From a virus: a stretch of 29,639 nt of DNA. The notes under the pieces were generated by a model. The model had not been told where the DNA came from. It ran no database searches and saw only the letters and a list, made by a program, of their open reading frames with translations. A program made the translations under genes and the position numbers. Position 1 is the stretch's first letter; the number at the start of each line of letters is the position of its first letter. Location: the UHGV virus genome UHGV-0037185; one strand, 5' to 3'. This document shows, piece after piece, positions 20,441 to 25,975 of this stretch.

Positions 20441-21474
20441 TGAGCAAGAAAAAAGGGAAAACACCGCGACCAGCGGCAAAAAAAATGACCGCCAGCGCCC
20501 CGAAAATGGAGGCATTCACCTTTGGTGAACCGGTGCCGGTACTCGACCGCCGTGACATTCTGGATTACGTCGAGTGCATCAGTAACGGCAGATGGTATGA
20601 GCCACCGGTCAGCTTTACCGGTCTGGCAAAAAGCCTGCGTGCTGCCGTGCATCACAGCTCACCGATTTACGTCAAACGCAATATTCTGGCTTCAACGTTT
20701 ATCCCGCACCCGTGGCTGTCCCAGCAGGATTTCAGCCGCTTTGTGCTGGATTTTCTGGTGTTCGGTAATGCGTTTCTGGAAAAGCGTTACAGCACCACCG
20801 GTAAGGTCATCAGACTGGAAACCTCACCGGCAAAATATACCCGCCGTGGCGTGGAGGAGGATGTTTACTGGTGGGTGCCGTCCTTCAACGAGCCGACAGC
20901 CTTCGCGCCCGGCTCCGTGTTTCACCTGCTGGAGCCGGATATTAATCAGGAGCTGTACGGCCTGCCGGAATATCTCAGCGCCCTTAACTCTGCCTGGCTG
21001 AATGAGTCAGCCACGCTGTTCCGCCGCAAGTATTACGAAAACGGCGCTCATGCCGGATACATCATGTACGTTACCGATGCCGTGCAGGATCGCAACGATA
21101 TCGAAATGCTTCGCGAAAACATGGTGAAGTCGAAAGGCCGCAACAACTTTAAAAACCTGTTTCTCTATGCCCCGCAGGGGAAAGCTGACGGCATTAAAAT
21201 TATCCCGCTCAGTGAAGTGGCAACGAAGGACGATTTTTTTAATATCAAAAAAGCCAGCGCCGCTGACCTGCTGGACGCGCACCGCATCCCCTTTCAGTTG
21301 ATGGGCGGCAAGCCGGAGAACGTCGGGTCGCTGGGTGATATTGAGAAAGTGGCAAAGGTCTTTGTCCGCAATGAGCTTATCCCGTTACAGGACAGGATCC
21401 GCGAGATAAACGGCTGGCTCGGTCAGGAGGTCATCCGCTTTAAAAACTACTCACTGGACACTGACAACGGCTGA
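20440..21474 (+). CDS. Q: Portal protein gpQ
   Basis: 344-aa ORF (MSKKKGKTPRPAAKK...), same length as P2 gpQ; start overlaps the P stop. Confidence 0.92.
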   Translation: MSKKKGKTPRPAAKKMTASAPKMEAFTFGEPVPVLDRRDILDYVECISNGRWYEPPVSFTGLAKSLRAAVHHSSPIYVKRNILASTFIPHPWLSQQDFSRFVLDFLVFGNAFLEKRYSTTGKVIRLETSPAKYTRRGVEEDVYWWVPSFNEPTAFAPGSVFHLLEPDINQELYGLPEYLSALNSAWLNESATLFRRKYYENGAHAGYIMYVTDAVQDRNDIEMLRENMVKSKGRNNFKNLFLYAPQGKADGIKIIPLSEVATKDDFFNIKKASAADLLDAHRIPFQLMGGKPENVGSLGDIEKVAKVFVRNELIPLQDRIREINGWLGQEVIRFKNYSLDTDNG

Positions 21475-21479
21475 ACATC

Positions 21480-21502
21480 GCCGCCTGCGGGCGGCTTTTT
21501 TA
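21480..21502 (+). terminator. Rho-independent terminator after Q
   Basis: GC stem gccgcc-tgcg-ggcggc followed by a run of six T. Confidence 0.75.
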
Positions 21503-21629
21503 CACCCTCACATGCTCACCACCGCACAAAACAGCCCGCAGACACACCAACGCCCCGGCGAACAATCTAAACGCCATCACGACGCGCTCAGACGCTGAAA
21601 AAATAAAATCAGCACCACCGCCAGCGCGC

Positions 21630-21648
21630 AGTGCTTTCCCCGCCTCGC
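21630..21648. other. cos site (19-nt cohesive end sequence)
   Basis: Plus strand gtgctttccccgcctcgcc, the reverse complement of GGCGAGGCGGGGAAAGCAC, which I recall as the P2 cohesive end; located just past Q as in P2. Confidence 0.8.
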
Positions 21649-21886
21649 CCGCCCGCTTCATGGGGCGGTTTTAATGCAGTTGCAATAACACATCAAAACA
21701 TCGTCAATACAGGCGATTATAAACAATAAAAAACGATCGCTGCCGCATGCAAAATCATGCACTAAATGCATGTATTGAAGGGAAATTAGGAACGTGCTCG
21801 TTTGGGTCTAAACTATGATTTCGACACAACTATTTTCCCCAAATCAAAACTAAATTCGACATCCCCATTTACGATATTTTCATTTG

Positions 21887-22708
21887 TCACATGCTCATCA
21901 AAAAGGTCACTAACATCATACCCCGACTGAAACACTGGCTCATGATAGCCACGTCGGTGAATGGCTCTTTTTCATGTGTTATATAATATTGACCATAAAC
22001 ATTTGCAGATTCATCTGCATCATTAAGACTAAGGACTGTTTTTGCTTTGACTTCAGGCATCAGAGAAAAATCAATATTATTCAACAAACACAGTAAGATG
22101 CCTGCTATTGCTCTCCTGTTATTATCAAGCGGCATCAAGTCCACCCCTGGAATCGCCTTCCGAAGCAATATTTTCAGCTCATTAAATAAAGAGTCGAACT
22201 TAATTGCGTCAGAACAATTGAGTAACGACAAAGCTTCATTAATCATTCGCCCTTCATTGGAACCAATTTCTGATGTTAACTTACAAACACCATCATTAAC
22301 AATATACGATTTTTTGTTATTAAGCTTCTTCCTCGCTGTAATTACCTGTCCCCCCTTTAAGTTTAACTTCTCCTTTAAAAACTCATCACTGAACATTCTT
22401 AATTGCAGTCTGATTAATGTAGGTAAGTATTTCGGGTATTCATTTAACTCTGGTTTAACAGCATACTTGTCGCGTCCAAATTTTAAACTTAATAACAAAT
22501 GATTCCTCAGCATGATATCCTTTATCTCGCCTTGATCTCTCCGATGATTATGGGCAACAAAACTCCCAATTTCAAAAATACACTTGGGCGCACTCGGCAA
22601 CTCACGGGCCGTAACAAAAAGAACATCAATATCACTATCAGTGAAACTCCCATCCTTTAATCTTCTCAACACTCTCTCTATTCTTGAGATTGCTTTACTT
22701 TTATTCAT
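21887..22708 (-). CDS. Hypothetical protein, 273 aa, AT-rich cargo gene at the tin/old position (candidate anti-phage defence protein)
   Basis: Long ORF in a strongly AT-rich stretch flanked by GC-richer phage genes; same strand as A, ends about 240 bp from cos; no family recognised. Confidence 0.7.
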   Translation of the reverse strand: MNKSKAISRIERVLRRLKDGSFTDSDIDVLFVTARELPSAPKCIFEIGSFVAHNHRRDQGEIKDIMLRNHLLLSLKFGRDKYAVKPELNEYPKYLPTLIRLQLRMFSDEFLKEKLNLKGGQVITARKKLNNKKSYIVNDGVCKLTSEIGSNEGRMINEALSLLNCSDAIKFDSLFNELKILLRKAIPGVDLMPLDNNRRAIAGILLCLLNNIDFSLMPEVKAKTVLSLNDADESANVYGQYYITHEKEPFTDVAIMSQCFSRGMMLVTFLMSM

Positions 22709-23034
22709 GACATTCTTTCAACCTTAATCAATATTTAATTTAAATAAACCATTCTCATACGCCAACCATACCTGTGACACCTGACAAACCAAATAAAAAC
22801 AAAGGTACAGCGGATATTGGTATGTACAGCTATATTACACATAAACTCATGTTAGTAACATAAGATCTTCTTGTGAATATTTGTAATTTATTAGTTCACC
22901 AACATTAATCTTTCCAACCGTTATAAATCCAATCATATGCTGATACTCAAATGACGGCCAACTACCACCTCGCGCTGTTCGTTGTTCCCTCCAGCAGCAC
23001 TGGAAGCATGTTTCAGTACTGCTGGGGTTTTCTA

Positions 23035-23250
23035 TCAACAACGTGGTAGCAGTGCAATTTTAGACTGTTCTATATCGTTAAACCGCACGTAATTATCCCG
23101 GACTATTTCGGCACACCCGACCAACTCGTCGGGCGTCAGATTTTCGTTGACCATAATCTGCTGTAGACGGTGAACAATAGCCATCAGCTTGATATTTTTA
23201 GTGTTATGTTGCGGTATCTCGCCTGGTATTCTGTGCATTATCCAAGCCAC
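23035..23250 (-). CDS. Hypothetical small protein (71 aa)
   Basis: Start overlaps the end of the upstream ORF by 13 nt, suggesting translational coupling; no recognisable domain. Confidence 0.4.
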   Translation of the reverse strand: MAWIMHRIPGEIPQHNTKNIKLMAIVHRLQQIMVNENLTPDELVGCAEIVRDNYVRFNDIEQSKIALLPRC

Positions 23251-23690
23251 CCGTTTTGCTTTGCACGCTCAATCTGTTCATCTGAATAGTTCCATGCTCC
23301 ATCCGTGGCAACCATTGCCCCGCCAGACATCCCCGTCTCTGGTTCATACATAACAGCAAGGCCGAGCTGATGCATAATTTCATGATTAATTCTGAATACC
23401 AGACCACGCTCACTAAGTTCTTTCCAGTTCACAATCTCATATGCGCCTGTATTAAGCTGCTCAATACTCAGCAAGACATAATCTTCCAGCCAGTCTGACA
23501 GGTCAGTAACATCTGTTATCCGGGCTTCAACCTTTCGCCCCGTATACACACCCTGCACCCATTCATGCAAAATCAACGTGTCCCCGCGCTCATAATTACG
23601 GTCATTTTTCCGAAACTCTGCGCGTTTCTTTCCTTCCAGCACAAGGTCGAAATATTTTGCGTGCAGCTTTACCTCGTGAATTTTTGCCAT
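23238..23690 (-). CDS. ASCH-like (DUF3850-type) protein, about 150 aa
   Basis: N-terminus MAKIHEVKLHAKYFDLVLEGKKRAEFRKNDRNYERGDTLILHEW fits the DUF3850/ASCH pattern as I recall it; the ATG at 23690 overlaps the A stop (ORF track extends to 23726). Confidence 0.6.
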   Translation of the reverse strand: MAKIHEVKLHAKYFDLVLEGKKRAEFRKNDRNYERGDTLILHEWVQGVYTGRKVEARITDVTDLSDWLEDYVLLSIEQLNTGAYEIVNWKELSERGLVFRINHEIMHQLGLAVMYEPETGMSGGAMVATDGAWNYSDEQIERAKQNGWLG

Positions 23691-25975
23691 CATGTCCACT
23701 CCATTACTGTTGAGAATCCCGGCCACTCATCAGCGACCGGATACGTGAATTTTTTCCCGTCATAATTTACAGTCGCGCCACGCGCCAGCGCCTCAAGCTC
23801 CCATCGCTGCGGCCTGATACCGTTCTGAGCAAGGTCAACGCGGATACGGGTGATTTGCATTCGTTCCGACCGGGTCAGTCTGGCCGATGGCGCAATTTCA
23901 TGCGGTTTTAACGTGCTTCCGTTTCTTTGCTGACAGTTTGGTCTTCTATGTCCGTGTTTTAATGCGCCCCTGAGCGCCCTCACGACCTCCGGGTCATTCC
24001 ATTCGATAACACCGTCATCAACCAGATTAAGCACTGCTGCGGCGTGTTCAGAAGGTGTGGGGGCCGGTAACGAAGTATCACCACCGGTGAGCTTTCCACA
24101 GTTATTGACAGGACTCCGAGGCGCGGCGATGCCGCTTTTTAAAGTCAAAGGCTCAACGACCGGCACTTTCGGAACAATGCGCCAGTCCGTCGTTCTGGTG
24201 ATATGAATATGACGCGCGCCGAGATGCGGCGCGTAAATGCCGACCACTCTCTCGACTTCTTCCTCGTACTCGTTAACTTCATCCGACGGACTACGGGCAA
24301 CCCTGACAGTCTGACAATCGCGCGGAACATTTGCCCCGCCCTGCGCGCTGATATACAGCGCAAAATCACCACTGTCTGCGGCGGCGCGTGCAGCCTCGAC
24401 GCGCTCGTCAAACTCATCAGCAATGCTGACGCCGCGAGGCAATTTGCGTAGTTCACGGTAAGCCCCCATTGTCGGCAGGCCAACCGTTTTAAATTGCGGA
24501 ATGCGCCACGTTGACGCCCATGCGGTAACAGCTGCGGCAGTATCTTTCAGAGGTCTGCCGGTATCGTTATCGAGCTGCCCATCCAGTGCATAGCCGTCGA
24601 TATTTTTTGAGATGTATTTCGCGATATACCCCGCAGCACCGCCCCGGTTAAGATGTTTTGCCTGAAAACGGTTTCGCGCGGCTCCTCTTTCGTCGCCATC
24701 CTCTTTGAGCGCATAGCGACGCATGATTTCGATAATCTGGTTACGCTGGCGTGGATTACAAAAAAGCATCATATGCCAGTGCGGCGTTCCGTCGTGGTGT
24801 GGCTCGACGACGCGCAAACCGTAGACCTGTAAATCATTATCCTTGAATGCCGTGCGCATCAGGCTCCAGATACGGCAGAGATAACGCTGCGCATCCTTTG
24901 GATTAAATGCCTCATCGTTCCAGCCGTGATTAAGCTGAACGGTTTTACTTTCGCCTTTTCCGACCTGACGTGTCGGGTGATACTTTGACGGCGCGGTCAG
25001 CGTGATAAACATCCCCACATCACCCTCTGCGGCGGCGTAACGCTCAATACCGGCAATGGTGTTCATCAGCTCCATCCGGCGAATTTCAGGATTAGAAATA
25101 CTGCCCATCACCTTACTGATAAGGTCGATGCGCTCGCCGGTTTCCCTGTTTTCAAGGTCACACGATTTAAGAAATTCCAGATTTGCCTGGCGGCGCGCAC
25201 GCACATCACGAATGGCGTGTTTACTGGCATAAGGAGAACGGTCTTTATTGACCTCCCCGACAGCTATCAGTAACGCTTCATGCCAGCGCATACGCTGGCC
25301 TTTAAGCTGATGAGTCCACCACTCATCGTTAAACAGACGGGCAATGGCAGAATATGCCTGCCTCGTGGTCATCTGTCCTTTACGGTATTTTTTCCAGTAA
25401 AGCGGGGAAATATTGAAAGCACGTGCAGCGCCAGCAACATGACCATACAGATGCGCCTGCGCCTCATCCGTAAACAGCGATTCTTTTTCGCCATGCGCAT
25501 CCACCCAGGCATCGCAGAGTTCCTCATACATCATGAAAATCTGCGATGAGATACGGGCGGCAAACTTTTTCAGCTCCTTGTCATTCATTCCAGGCAGGCG
25601 CGCATAGTGGTCACGCTCTGCCAGAAACAGCAACGACGCGTCGGTGTTCATTTCATGGCGCTGATTCACACGCTCAATACGCGGCCATAAACGACGCTGA
25701 AAAGTGGATGTGAGGAAATAAAACCCGTGTACCGGACTTTTATTGCGCCGGATGTAGTCATAGCGTGAAGTAAACAGCGAGCGCAAAAAGTAAGGCAGGC
25801 GGTTAATCGTGGATAAAACACCTTGCACCTGACGCATCTCGTCACGTGTAAGAGGTCTTTCTCGCCCGACGGCCTCGCGTGGCGCGTTCCATGCATAAGC
25901 ACCGGTAAACGTCTCACCGGTGCCTGCGGCAAATGCTGACGGAGGGACAAAACGCCCGGAGGCTTTAACGGCCAT
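23690..25975 (-). CDS. A: Replication initiation protein gpA (rolling-circle HUH nickase)
   Basis: ORF 23690..26017; the start at MAVKASGRF gives 761 aa as in P2 gpA; contains HUH motif (PHWHMMLF) and active-site tyrosine motif (YIAKYISK). Confidence 0.9.
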   Translation of the reverse strand: MAVKASGRFVPPSAFAAGTGETFTGAYAWNAPREAVGRERPLTRDEMRQVQGVLSTINRLPYFLRSLFTSRYDYIRRNKSPVHGFYFLTSTFQRRLWPRIERVNQRHEMNTDASLLFLAERDHYARLPGMNDKELKKFAARISSQIFMMYEELCDAWVDAHGEKESLFTDEAQAHLYGHVAGAARAFNISPLYWKKYRKGQMTTRQAYSAIARLFNDEWWTHQLKGQRMRWHEALLIAVGEVNKDRSPYASKHAIRDVRARRQANLEFLKSCDLENRETGERIDLISKVMGSISNPEIRRMELMNTIAGIERYAAAEGDVGMFITLTAPSKYHPTRQVGKGESKTVQLNHGWNDEAFNPKDAQRYLCRIWSLMRTAFKDNDLQVYGLRVVEPHHDGTPHWHMMLFCNPRQRNQIIEIMRRYALKEDGDERGAARNRFQAKHLNRGGAAGYIAKYISKNIDGYALDGQLDNDTGRPLKDTAAAVTAWASTWRIPQFKTVGLPTMGAYRELRKLPRGVSIADEFDERVEAARAAADSGDFALYISAQGGANVPRDCQTVRVARSPSDEVNEYEEEVERVVGIYAPHLGARHIHITRTTDWRIVPKVPVVEPLTLKSGIAAPRSPVNNCGKLTGGDTSLPAPTPSEHAAAVLNLVDDGVIEWNDPEVVRALRGALKHGHRRPNCQQRNGSTLKPHEIAPSARLTRSERMQITRIRVDLAQNGIRPQRWELEALARGATVNYDGKKFTYPVADEWPGFSTVMEWT

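Follow-up and report, generated by a model that had tools for sequence, protein, structure and literature searches.

We found that the two small genes lying directly after the replication initiator gene A in UHGV-0037185, a virus genome stretch of 29,639 nucleotides (the window), are real conserved genes of the P2-like early replication operon. They belong to the conserved backbone of these phages, separate from the variable defence cargo that follows them. Judged by its sequence, the first gene, encoding a 150-aa ASCH-DUF7415 protein, is the full-length orthologue of P2 orf91, and the P2 copy is truncated to the ASCH domain. Both genes are already annotated and present in published tables. 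The features of the locus are listed in Table 1.

Table 1. Features of the region downstream of gene A (positions in the window)
Feature	Position	Strand	Basis or remark
Gene A, replication initiator / nicking endonuclease	23690..25975	-	ORF; 97-99% identical to P2 and Wphi gpA
ASCH(DUF3850)-DUF7415 gene, 150 aa	23238..23690	-	Pfam and PHROG matches, start-codon conservation, dN/dS 0.28, AF2 pLDDT 87
DUF3850 / ASCH (PUA-like beta-barrel) domain	23463..23681	-	octapeptide G-K-K-R-A-E-F-R, then KNDRN
DUF7415 core (helix, helix, beta-hairpin)	23307..23435	-	motif GLvfRINxE[IV][LM]HPLGLA...G.S.GA...DG.W
67-aa ORF	23035..23238	-	PHROG 11386; PSP3 gp37 homologue; core dN/dS 0.18
AT-rich spacer, GC about 30-40%	22709..23034	.	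composition profile; between conserved pair and cargo gene
Cargo gene, 273-aa ORF (context only, outside the module)	21887..22708	-	PHROG 29586

The two ORFs are regarded as real, and more than chance reading frames, because of their full-length PHROG family matches (phrog_1812, E 4e-82, for the 150-aa protein and phrog_11386, E 4e-39, for the 67-aa ORF), their hundreds of homologues, variation that falls mostly at third codon positions, and low dN/dS ratios. The ratio for the ASCH-DUF7415 gene is 0.28 as a whole, 0.16 in the N-domain and 0.38 in the C-domain, and that for the core of the 67-aa ORF is 0.18, indicating purifying selection on both genes. Of 56 loci, 54-56 keep the reading frames open, and A, ASCH-DUF7415, small ORF is the gene order in every one of the 56 IMG/VR loci that carry the full-length gene. 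The same trio exists in an Enterobacter lineage whose ASCH protein is only 56% identical. Among complete E. coli genomes, 1682 have a close A gene, 403 have the pair and 25 have the whole locus including the cargo. Among E. coli prophages that have a close A gene, about a quarter contain the pair; since about three quarters lack it, it does not count as a core replication function. The sequence-only reading had named conservation as core genes, in all P2-like genomes and regardless of cargo, as an argument against its own proposal. The genes do occur regardless of cargo, but not in all P2-like genomes. A second search, of genome contigs with the ASCH protein, gave two loci only.

Among the large genes of the early operon, A comes last, and its 2286-nt extent was taken from the PGAP annotation of the near-identical CUVM53 locus. 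The start of the 150-aa gene overlaps the A stop codon TGA (23692-23690), just as had been noticed from the letters of the window, and a GGAG ribosome-binding motif is found ahead of that gene at 23702-23699. Two ATG codons are candidates for the start. The first (23693-23691), forming an ATGA overlap with the A stop, is found in 38 of the 56 related loci. The second (23690-23688), forming a TGATG overlap, is found in all of them and is the PGAP start in the 100% identical copy of E. coli CUVM53, giving the 150-aa protein. The longest form of the small ORF has 71 aa, beginning at a GTG at 23250 and overlapping the ASCH gene by 13 nt. This form, described in the sequence-only reading, exists, but the true start is most likely the ATG at 23238-23236, which gives 67 aa and shares one base with the ASCH stop TAA (TAATG), since this ATG is conserved in 56/56 loci and was chosen by PGAP. 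Both the TGATG and the TAATG overlaps are kept in every one of the 56 loci. A scan of 21400-23800 found no terminator-like site between the A, 150-aa and 67-aa genes. Because of these overlapping stop and start codons and the lack of a terminator-like site, joint expression with the replication initiator is expected: the three genes would be expressed together after infection or induction and, judging from the gene arrangement, probably from the early promoter only. The terminator scan also gave no terminator-like site on the minus strand from 23035 to 22709. Promoter-like sites in 21400-23800 were not more frequent than in shuffled sequence and are uninformative on a cargo promoter. A 64-aa ORF at 22847-23041, with a TTG start and zero family matches, was treated as spurious.

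The ASCH-like, DUF3850-type N-terminus proposed for the 150-aa protein was borne out by Pfam, where both DUF3850 (PF12961; E 6.8e-18, 65.1 bits vs a cut-off of 22.9) and ASCH (PF04266; E 2.4e-11, 44.7 bits vs 21.2) matched. The C-terminal half is DUF7415 (PF24187; E 1.9e-14, 54 bits vs 27), a second domain that was absent from the sequence-only reading. The ASCH domain has the PUA-like beta-barrel fold, and its GxKxxExR-type octapeptide is in register with those of PDB 3IUW and E. coli YqfB; the Glu of this octapeptide is missing from some orthologues. Many divergent alleles of the ASCH-DUF7415 gene exist, with about 50-57% identity. 3IUW ('Activating signal cointegrator', NP_814290) of Enterococcus faecalis, a structural-genomics entry, is a stand-alone DUF3850 protein of 83 residues with a single domain and no DUF7415, whereas the window protein has two domains. 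YqfB is an ASCH N4-acetylcytidine amidohydrolase with Thr24 as the nucleophile (PMC9599836). This position is Glu in the window protein and in 3IUW, and thus the YqfB catalytic arrangement is absent from the window protein. A YqfB-type N4-acylcytidine amidohydrolase was rejected, as the catalytic Lys21-Thr24-Glu74 triad is not preserved and the Thr nucleophile is replaced by Glu.

The 150-aa gene occupies the position of P2 orf91, in agreement with the sequence-only reading. Like P2 Orf91 (NP_046796, RefSeq 'DUF3850 domain-containing protein'), it follows A with an overlapping start at the same junction, and the two proteins are 97% identical over residues 1-76. The P2 homology ends at the domain boundary, at about position 23469 of the window, and P2 has no DUF7415. 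P2 also lacks the 67-aa ORF; there, tin and old follow orf91. P2 and P2-type prophages keep residues 1-76 only, and PGAP labels the P2-type copies as pseudogenes with a missing C-terminus. The function of P2 Orf91 has been entered as 'unknown' (PMC3091744). The textbook annotation can be corrected here: P2 orf91 is the stump of a two-domain gene that has lost its second half at the site now occupied by tin and old.

The DUF7415 motif GLvfRINxEIxHxLGLA...S.GA...DG.W is common to 171 of the 215 relatives collected. A PDB profile search found no relatives among solved structures, Foldseek matches in BFVD were confined to other DUF7415 proteins, and no mention of DUF7415 was found in the literature searched. 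Stand-alone DUF7415 proteins (Klebsiella phage KP15, Salmonella phage Spc35 and phiO18P gp15) have the same motif and a predicted helix-helix-hairpin fold, and likewise lie within replication or nucleotide-metabolism gene clusters. In T4-like, T5-like and other P2-like phages, DUF7415 proteins are without ASCH or are joined to other partners. In a context sample of about ten loci, which is not a census, the DUF7415 gene is immediately downstream of GPA (L084), preceded by a Toprim-type replication protein and followed by a Dam methylase (L081), flanked by a TraR-like gene and by Dam plus GPA (L082), or one gene downstream of rep (Aeromonas phage phiO18P). It is flanked by nrdD and nrdG in a T4-like phage and close to nrdD and an origin-binding protein in a T5-like phage, and it also adjoins class I RNR and a phosphoribosyltransferase or lies downstream of a UvsW-like helicase. 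Fusions with a dATP/dGTP pyrophosphohydrolase (three clusters), an Rv2179c-like exoribonuclease (one) and thymidylate kinase (one) were also found. In at least three phage families, the small conserved DUF7415 domain accompanies genes of replication and nucleotide metabolism. The small ORFs after DUF7415 in L084 and phiO18P are unrelated to the 67-aa ORF, which rules out a general pair of DUF7415 and a small ORF. A HExxH zinc metalloprotease was rejected for this domain, because the first His of HEIMH (residues 104-108 of the 151-aa translation from 23693) is not invariant. This position in the 171 relatives is H in 59, R in 46, K in 23, T in 18 and N in 13, with rarer A/Y/Q/E/S/D; conservation is limited to the Glu and the second His, and structure comparison gave no fold match of DUF7415 to any protease.

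From the gene arrangement and these contexts, the pair most likely serves DNA replication or nucleotide handling in the phage as an accessory, expressed early and non-essential, which would improve lytic replication but not be required for it; we give this reading about an even chance of being right. By analogy with its relatives, the ASCH barrel may bind nucleic acid or a (modified) nucleoside. DUF7415 could be a small phage-specific module that ties the barrel to the replication or nucleotide-supply machinery, or that provides a ligand site. As for the 67-aa protein, it would be a distinct factor, small and helical in appearance, that enterobacterial P2/186-like phages encode at the operon end and that can occur without the ASCH gene. 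The module is considered dispensable because P2 keeps only the truncated copy without DUF7415. Other points toward dispensability are the Salmonella phage PSP3 and another locus (L005), both without the ASCH gene, and two loci in which the small ORF is cut to 13 codons. As a counterpoint to the tethering role of DUF7415, its conserved polar residues (N, E, H, S, D) are also compatible with a small enzyme.

Alternatively, the 150-aa protein might be an early counter-defence factor, in which the ASCH barrel reads a modified base or a nucleotide signal and shields the replicating phage genome from host or competitor defence. Its gene adjoins a hotspot of defence genes and, if the coupling is a guide, would be expressed with the earliest lytic genes. 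The patchy presence among close relatives and the divergent alleles resemble an arms-race-type pattern, and PUA-like domains read modified bases. BapA, an ASCH-like protein, acts on 5hmC in DNA (bioRxiv 10.64898/2026.02.25.707755), and an anti-defence role has been proposed for prophage DUF3850 fusions to ParB-CTPase folds (PMC12704722); we counted both for this explanation. However, the protein resembles no characterised anti-defence protein, its dN/dS of 0.16-0.38 is that of ordinary purifying selection, the neighbours of DUF7415 are replication and nucleotide-metabolism genes with none known as anti-defence, and P2 manages without the C-terminal half. We therefore regard counter-defence as unlikely, and the accessory role in replication or nucleotide handling as the preferred reading.

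Rousset et al. 2022 (PMC9122126) described a 'hotspot' of anti-phage systems between gpA and gpQ of P2, to which the window locus corresponds. In that study, the entire gpA-gpQ interval was counted as the hotspot, whereas we find that its first two genes are conserved backbone. Between gpA and gpQ, Table S5A of the study includes DUF3850/ASCH as well as the exact 67-aa protein (WP_021517479), and the old-tin construct of that study included the truncated orf91, undissected (PMC9122126). In 56 related phage contigs the pair adjoins about 25 different cargo types, 28 sequence types of the stretch between pair and portal gene are seen among 61 loci, and one locus (L019) has the pair with essentially no cargo. 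The cargo of this window is found in only 3 of the 56 IMG/VR loci carrying the full-length gene. Its 273-aa ORF is frameshifted relative to a 298-aa homologue and has no Pfam match. PADLOC and NCBIfam profiles gave zero matches for the ASCH protein, the 67-aa protein and the cargo, and PADLOC thus placed none of the three in a known defence protein family. The points at which homology to other prophages breaks off are concentrated at the 3' terminus of the 67-aa ORF and over the following 40 bases (query positions 1, 8, 20, 29, 38, 44 and 54), and the Wphi homology stops near 22995. The exchange junction lies in the last codons of the 67-aa gene. A defence cassette would vary and travel with its neighbouring cargo, but the pair is constant across 28 cargo types.

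The sequence-only reading had offered two possibilities, that the ORFs are accessory to the 273-aa cargo gene or that they form an independent small module, and the latter is the better description. That the pair serves the cargo gene, or forms a lysogenic-conversion defence module of its own, is in our view very improbable. The pair and the cargo gene are adjacent on the same strand, and 'DUF3850/ASCH + hypothetical ...' is among the arrangements in the hotspot as delimited by Rousset et al., who took everything between gpA and gpQ (PMC9122126). On the other hand, about 25 or more unrelated cargos occur beside the pair, with almost no cargo in L019, just 25 of the 403 E. coli genomes with the pair have this cargo, an AT-rich spacer of 326 nt lies between pair and cargo, and PADLOC matches are absent. 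Coupling to a repressed early operon also speaks against expression in the lysogen. The idea of cargo partners is largely refuted by this distribution. The variable hotspot starts at the 3' end of the 67-aa gene, and the first two genes are best removed before any clustering, cloning or testing of cargo cassettes.

The 67-aa ORF consists of a conserved core (residues 1-50) and about 17 variable residues at the end. Pfam gave no match, and a PDB sequence search gave noise only. Its counterparts are PSP3 gp37, with 78% identity over 58 residues, and a 68-aa ORF of an Enterobacter lineage. PSP3 gp37, too, closes the stretch that follows A; unlike the 67-aa ORF, which follows the ASCH gene, it comes after tumA and tumB (DinI-like). 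PSP3 and L005 carry the small ORF without an ASCH gene, and in 2 of 56 loci the small ORF is shortened to 13 codons beside an intact ASCH gene. A toxin-antitoxin or addiction system, made up of the 150-aa toxin and the 67-aa antitoxin or the reverse, would suit two small, overlapping genes that are expected to be co-transcribed and lie at the edge of a mobile-element hotspot. However, the partners are not obligately inherited together, since each gene occurs alone (PSP3 and L005, the two 13-codon loci, and the ASCH N-domain of P2), and no toxin-antitoxin family in Pfam, NCBIfam or PADLOC matched, so we hold such a pair to be most doubtful. In the Wphi record, both genes are disrupted by stop codons and frameshifts. 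An identity of the 67-aa ORF with Wphi 'orf92' was rejected, as Wphi gp91 and gp92 are pieces of a frameshifted ASCH-DUF7415 gene running into the small ORF.

A functionless remnant, with the DNA between A and the cargo decaying, would fit the truncated P2 copy, the broken Wphi genes and the absence of both genes from most P2-like prophages, but it is hardly credible given the intact frames (54-56 of 56 loci), the dN/dS well under 1 in both genes and both domains, the gene order kept in a lineage at about 56% protein identity and the conserved coupling signals. The GC content of the pair (46-47%) lies between those of A (55%) and the cargo (30-40%). This intermediate value is a counterpoint to the accessory reading, as an old acquisition with a host-directed role may still fit.

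This P2-like (Peduovirus) E. coli prophage has its portal (Q) and terminase genes on the plus strand, left of the early operon. Gene A is followed by two genes whose arrangement provides for co-transcription with the replication initiator and for translational coupling to it. Two ATGs of the larger gene overlap the A stop, one at 23693 (as ATGA) and one at 23690 (as TGATG), with a GGAG motif 5 or 8 bases 5' of these candidates. The second ATG is kept in all 56 related contigs, the first in only 38, and the small-ORF ATG in 56/56. PGAP picks the same starts (second ATG and small-ORF ATG) in the 100% identical copy of E. coli CUVM53. The two ORFs of the sequence-only reading are thus real and overlap as it described, but on the basis of the conserved starts and PGAP their lengths were adjusted to 150 aa and 67 aa. 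The 71-aa version uses a GTG four codons 5' of the 67-aa start in the same frame, and its 13-nt overlap arises because this GTG sits inside the 150-aa gene.

Coordinates of features at the gene A junctions and in the cargo gene
Feature	Position	Strand	Remark
Gene A	23690-25975	minus	end of early operon
Stop codon (TGA) of A	23692-23690	minus	
Stop codon (TAA) of the 150-aa gene	23240-23238	minus	
67-codon ORF	ATG 23238-23236, end 23035	minus	A of the ATG is the last base of the TAA
Separate 40-aa ORF	21813-21935	minus	lost C-terminus of the cargo gene

Profile searches confirmed the DUF3850/ASCH domain proposed for the N-terminal half of the larger protein (Pfam DUF3850, E 6.8e-18; ASCH, E 2.4e-11). 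This half also matches the 83-residue structural-genomics protein 3IUW (E 4e-13), and the ASCH octapeptide is GKKRAEFR. Aligned in register with YqfB, it retains the catalytic Lys and Arg but has Glu in place of the nucleophile Thr24, and a YqfB-type enzyme was rejected for this reason. The C-terminal half, which had escaped the sequence-only reading, forms a Pfam domain of its own, DUF7415 (E 1.9e-14). Its conserved motif is GL..RIN.E[IV][LM]HPLGLA...G.S.GA...DG.W, and the predicted model (pLDDT 88.8) consists of helix, helix, β-hairpin and helix. The HEIMH in this half resembles a zinc-protease motif, but we dropped the zinc-protease reading because, across 171 relatives, R, K, T or N stands at the position of the first His as often as His itself. 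The family is small, with only 194 clusters at E <= 0.001 among 1.84 billion representatives, and our literature search found no mention of it.

We examined about ten independent contexts of DUF7415, and every one involves DNA replication, recombination or nucleotide supply. In Peduoviridae, a DUF7415 gene with a different N-terminal region directly follows GPA (L084), or DUF7415 stands between a Toprim-type replication protein and a Dam methylase (L081). It is flanked by a TraR-like gene and by Dam and GPA in a 186-like Cronobacter prophage (L082), and lies one gene after rep in Aeromonas phage phiO18P. Among other phages, it separates nrdD from nrdG in a T4-like Klebsiella phage. The T5-like Salmonella phage Spc35 (L077, 2827-3255) encodes a 142-aa protein of two tandem DUF7415 repeats; its gene adjoins two Sir2-like genes, with nrdD and an origin-binding protein nearby. 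In one further context DUF7415 adjoins a class I ribonucleotide reductase and a phosphoribosyltransferase, and in another it follows a UvsW-like helicase. Fusions join it to dATP/dGTP pyrophosphohydrolase (three clusters), an Rv2179c-like 3'-5' exoribonuclease and thymidylate kinase. We propose that the ASCH barrel may bind nucleic acid or a modified nucleoside, that DUF7415 would tie this barrel to the machinery of replication or of dNTP supply, or provide a ligand site, and that the module could confer a quantitative benefit in lytic growth. We give this overall picture of an operon-coupled accessory an even chance; any specific ligand would be much less probable. The variable gpA-gpQ interval is a P2 defence hotspot (Rousset et al. 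2022, PMC9122126), and an early counter-defence factor was also considered; no recognised defence or anti-defence gene occurs in the about ten DUF7415 contexts, and we regard this role as unlikely.

A Dam-type (MethyltransfD12) gene lies directly 3' of DUF7415 in two different P2/186-like prophages (L081, 5001-6254; L082, 5001-6286), which suggests a possible functional link to adenine methylation. Some DUF3850/ASCH loci in Rousset's table likewise include MethyltransfD12 or DNA_methylase genes (PMC9122126).

In all 56 IMG/VR loci encoding the full-length 150-aa protein, its gene is directly preceded by A and directly followed by the small ORF, and only 3 of these loci carry the 273-aa cargo gene. 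The final 700 bases of A occur in 1682 complete E. coli genomes, the pair in 403 (345 nearly full length) and the whole 21400-24000 stretch with the cargo in just 25. The pair therefore travels with A. These counts speak against the suggestion that it partners the cargo gene on the same strand; such a partnership, or a defence module, is highly improbable. The DNA between pair and portal falls into 28 sequence types in 61 loci (0.7 to 5.4 kb), and in one locus (L019) this interval is almost empty. An Enterobacter lineage keeps the order GPA, DUF3850-DUF7415, 68-aa ORF, cargo, portal, at 56% identity for the larger protein and 71% for the small one. Given the constant order of A and the pair across cargo types, the pair is backbone of one P2-like phage branch, independent of cargo. 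The sequence-only reading had also envisaged core genes present in all P2-like genomes regardless of cargo, and here independence from the cargo held but universality did not: other prophages whose A is 99% identical (L005) have other genes after A, and 186/PSP3-type phages have tum/DinI at this position. Rousset's Table S5A names DUF3850/ASCH in about 8 of its first ~85 gpQ-gpA loci (PMC9122126).

A 326-nt AT-rich stretch separates the pair from the cargo gene. The breakpoints of homology are concentrated in the final ~20 codons of the small ORF (query starts 1, 8, 20, 29, 38, 44, 54), so its C-terminal ~17 residues vary; residues 1-50 are conserved. Most alleles, among them PSP3 gp37 and those of the Enterobacter lineage, have a proline/arginine tail (..APPPRRR). 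The window's allele (23035-23090) ends ..IEQSKIALLPRC, an ending found in other loci with this cargo, and thus cargo exchange rewrote the tail. Within the AT-rich spacer, a TTG-start 64-aa ORF (22847-23041, minus) overlaps the end of the 67-aa ORF; it has no match in Pfam or PHROG and is probably not a gene.

P2 orf91 is an orthologue of the 150-aa gene, with 97% identity over residues 1-76 and the same A junction. It is a truncated copy, since homology stops at window ~23469, the boundary of the ASCH and DUF7415 domains, where tin and old come next in P2, and PGAP labels P2-type copies 'incomplete; missing C-terminus'. P2 also lacks the small ORF and yet grows well, so the full module is dispensable. 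In Wphi (L002, NC_005056, 3539-4180), translation identifies 'gp91' and 'gp92' as parts of a single ASCH-DUF7415 gene that a frameshift and two in-frame stops disrupt, through either genuine decay or errors of the old record. Wphi gp92 continues into the beginning of the 67-aa ORF, itself unannotated there, and equating the small ORF with Wphi orf92 was rejected accordingly. PSP3 gp37, a homologue of the small ORF (78% identity), lies downstream of tumA and tumB, where no ASCH gene is near, and a sensitive blastn search finds the small ORF in more E. coli genomes (545) than have the ASCH gene. The two genes are thus adjacent without being an obligate pair; that this adjacent couple is a toxin-antitoxin system is very doubtful. 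In a degraded P2-like prophage of E. coli SRY206 (L004, 4934-5573), A and the remaining early operon are deleted, and the DUF7415 half and small ORF abut an integrase-gene fragment adjoining cpxP.

Both ORFs are genes conserved under purifying selection. Over its full length the larger protein matches phrog_1812 (E 4e-82), and the small protein matches phrog_11386 (E 4e-39). Among distinct alleles, variable sites by codon position number 31/14/47 in the larger gene and 11/8/19 in the small one, the third position being commonest. The dN/dS is 0.28 for the larger gene (N-domain 0.16, C-domain 0.38) and 0.18 over codons 1-50 of the small ORF, both of whose alternative frames contain stop codons. 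The broken Wphi copy notwithstanding, a functionless remnant is scarcely credible.

The gene pair is already known as an object, since RefSeq holds identical proteins ('DUF3850 domain-containing protein' and 'hypothetical protein'), P2 orf91 has been mapped for decades with the function entry 'unknown' (PMC3091744), and the gpA-gpQ gene list of Rousset et al. includes DUF3850/ASCH and the exact small protein WP_021517479 (PMC9122126). What is added here is the two-domain architecture, of which the P2 copy is a stump, the position at which backbone gives way to cargo, and the consistent association of DUF7415 with replication and nucleotide functions.

The window's copy of the cargo gene, encoding 273 aa, carries a frameshift (21813-22708, minus). 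Near 21939, a CCC run has one C fewer than the 298-aa homologue of E. coli CUVM53, swapping the last 35 residues for 10 others; this could be a sequencing error or real inactivation. The cargo protein matches only phrog_29586, with no match in Pfam, PADLOC or NCBIfam. Near the Q end, the window has a 13-base deletion relative to CUVM53 (~21495-21510), just outside a terminator-like hairpin after the portal gene (GCCGCCTGCGGGCGGC, 21480-21495) and about where the cos site would be expected to lie.
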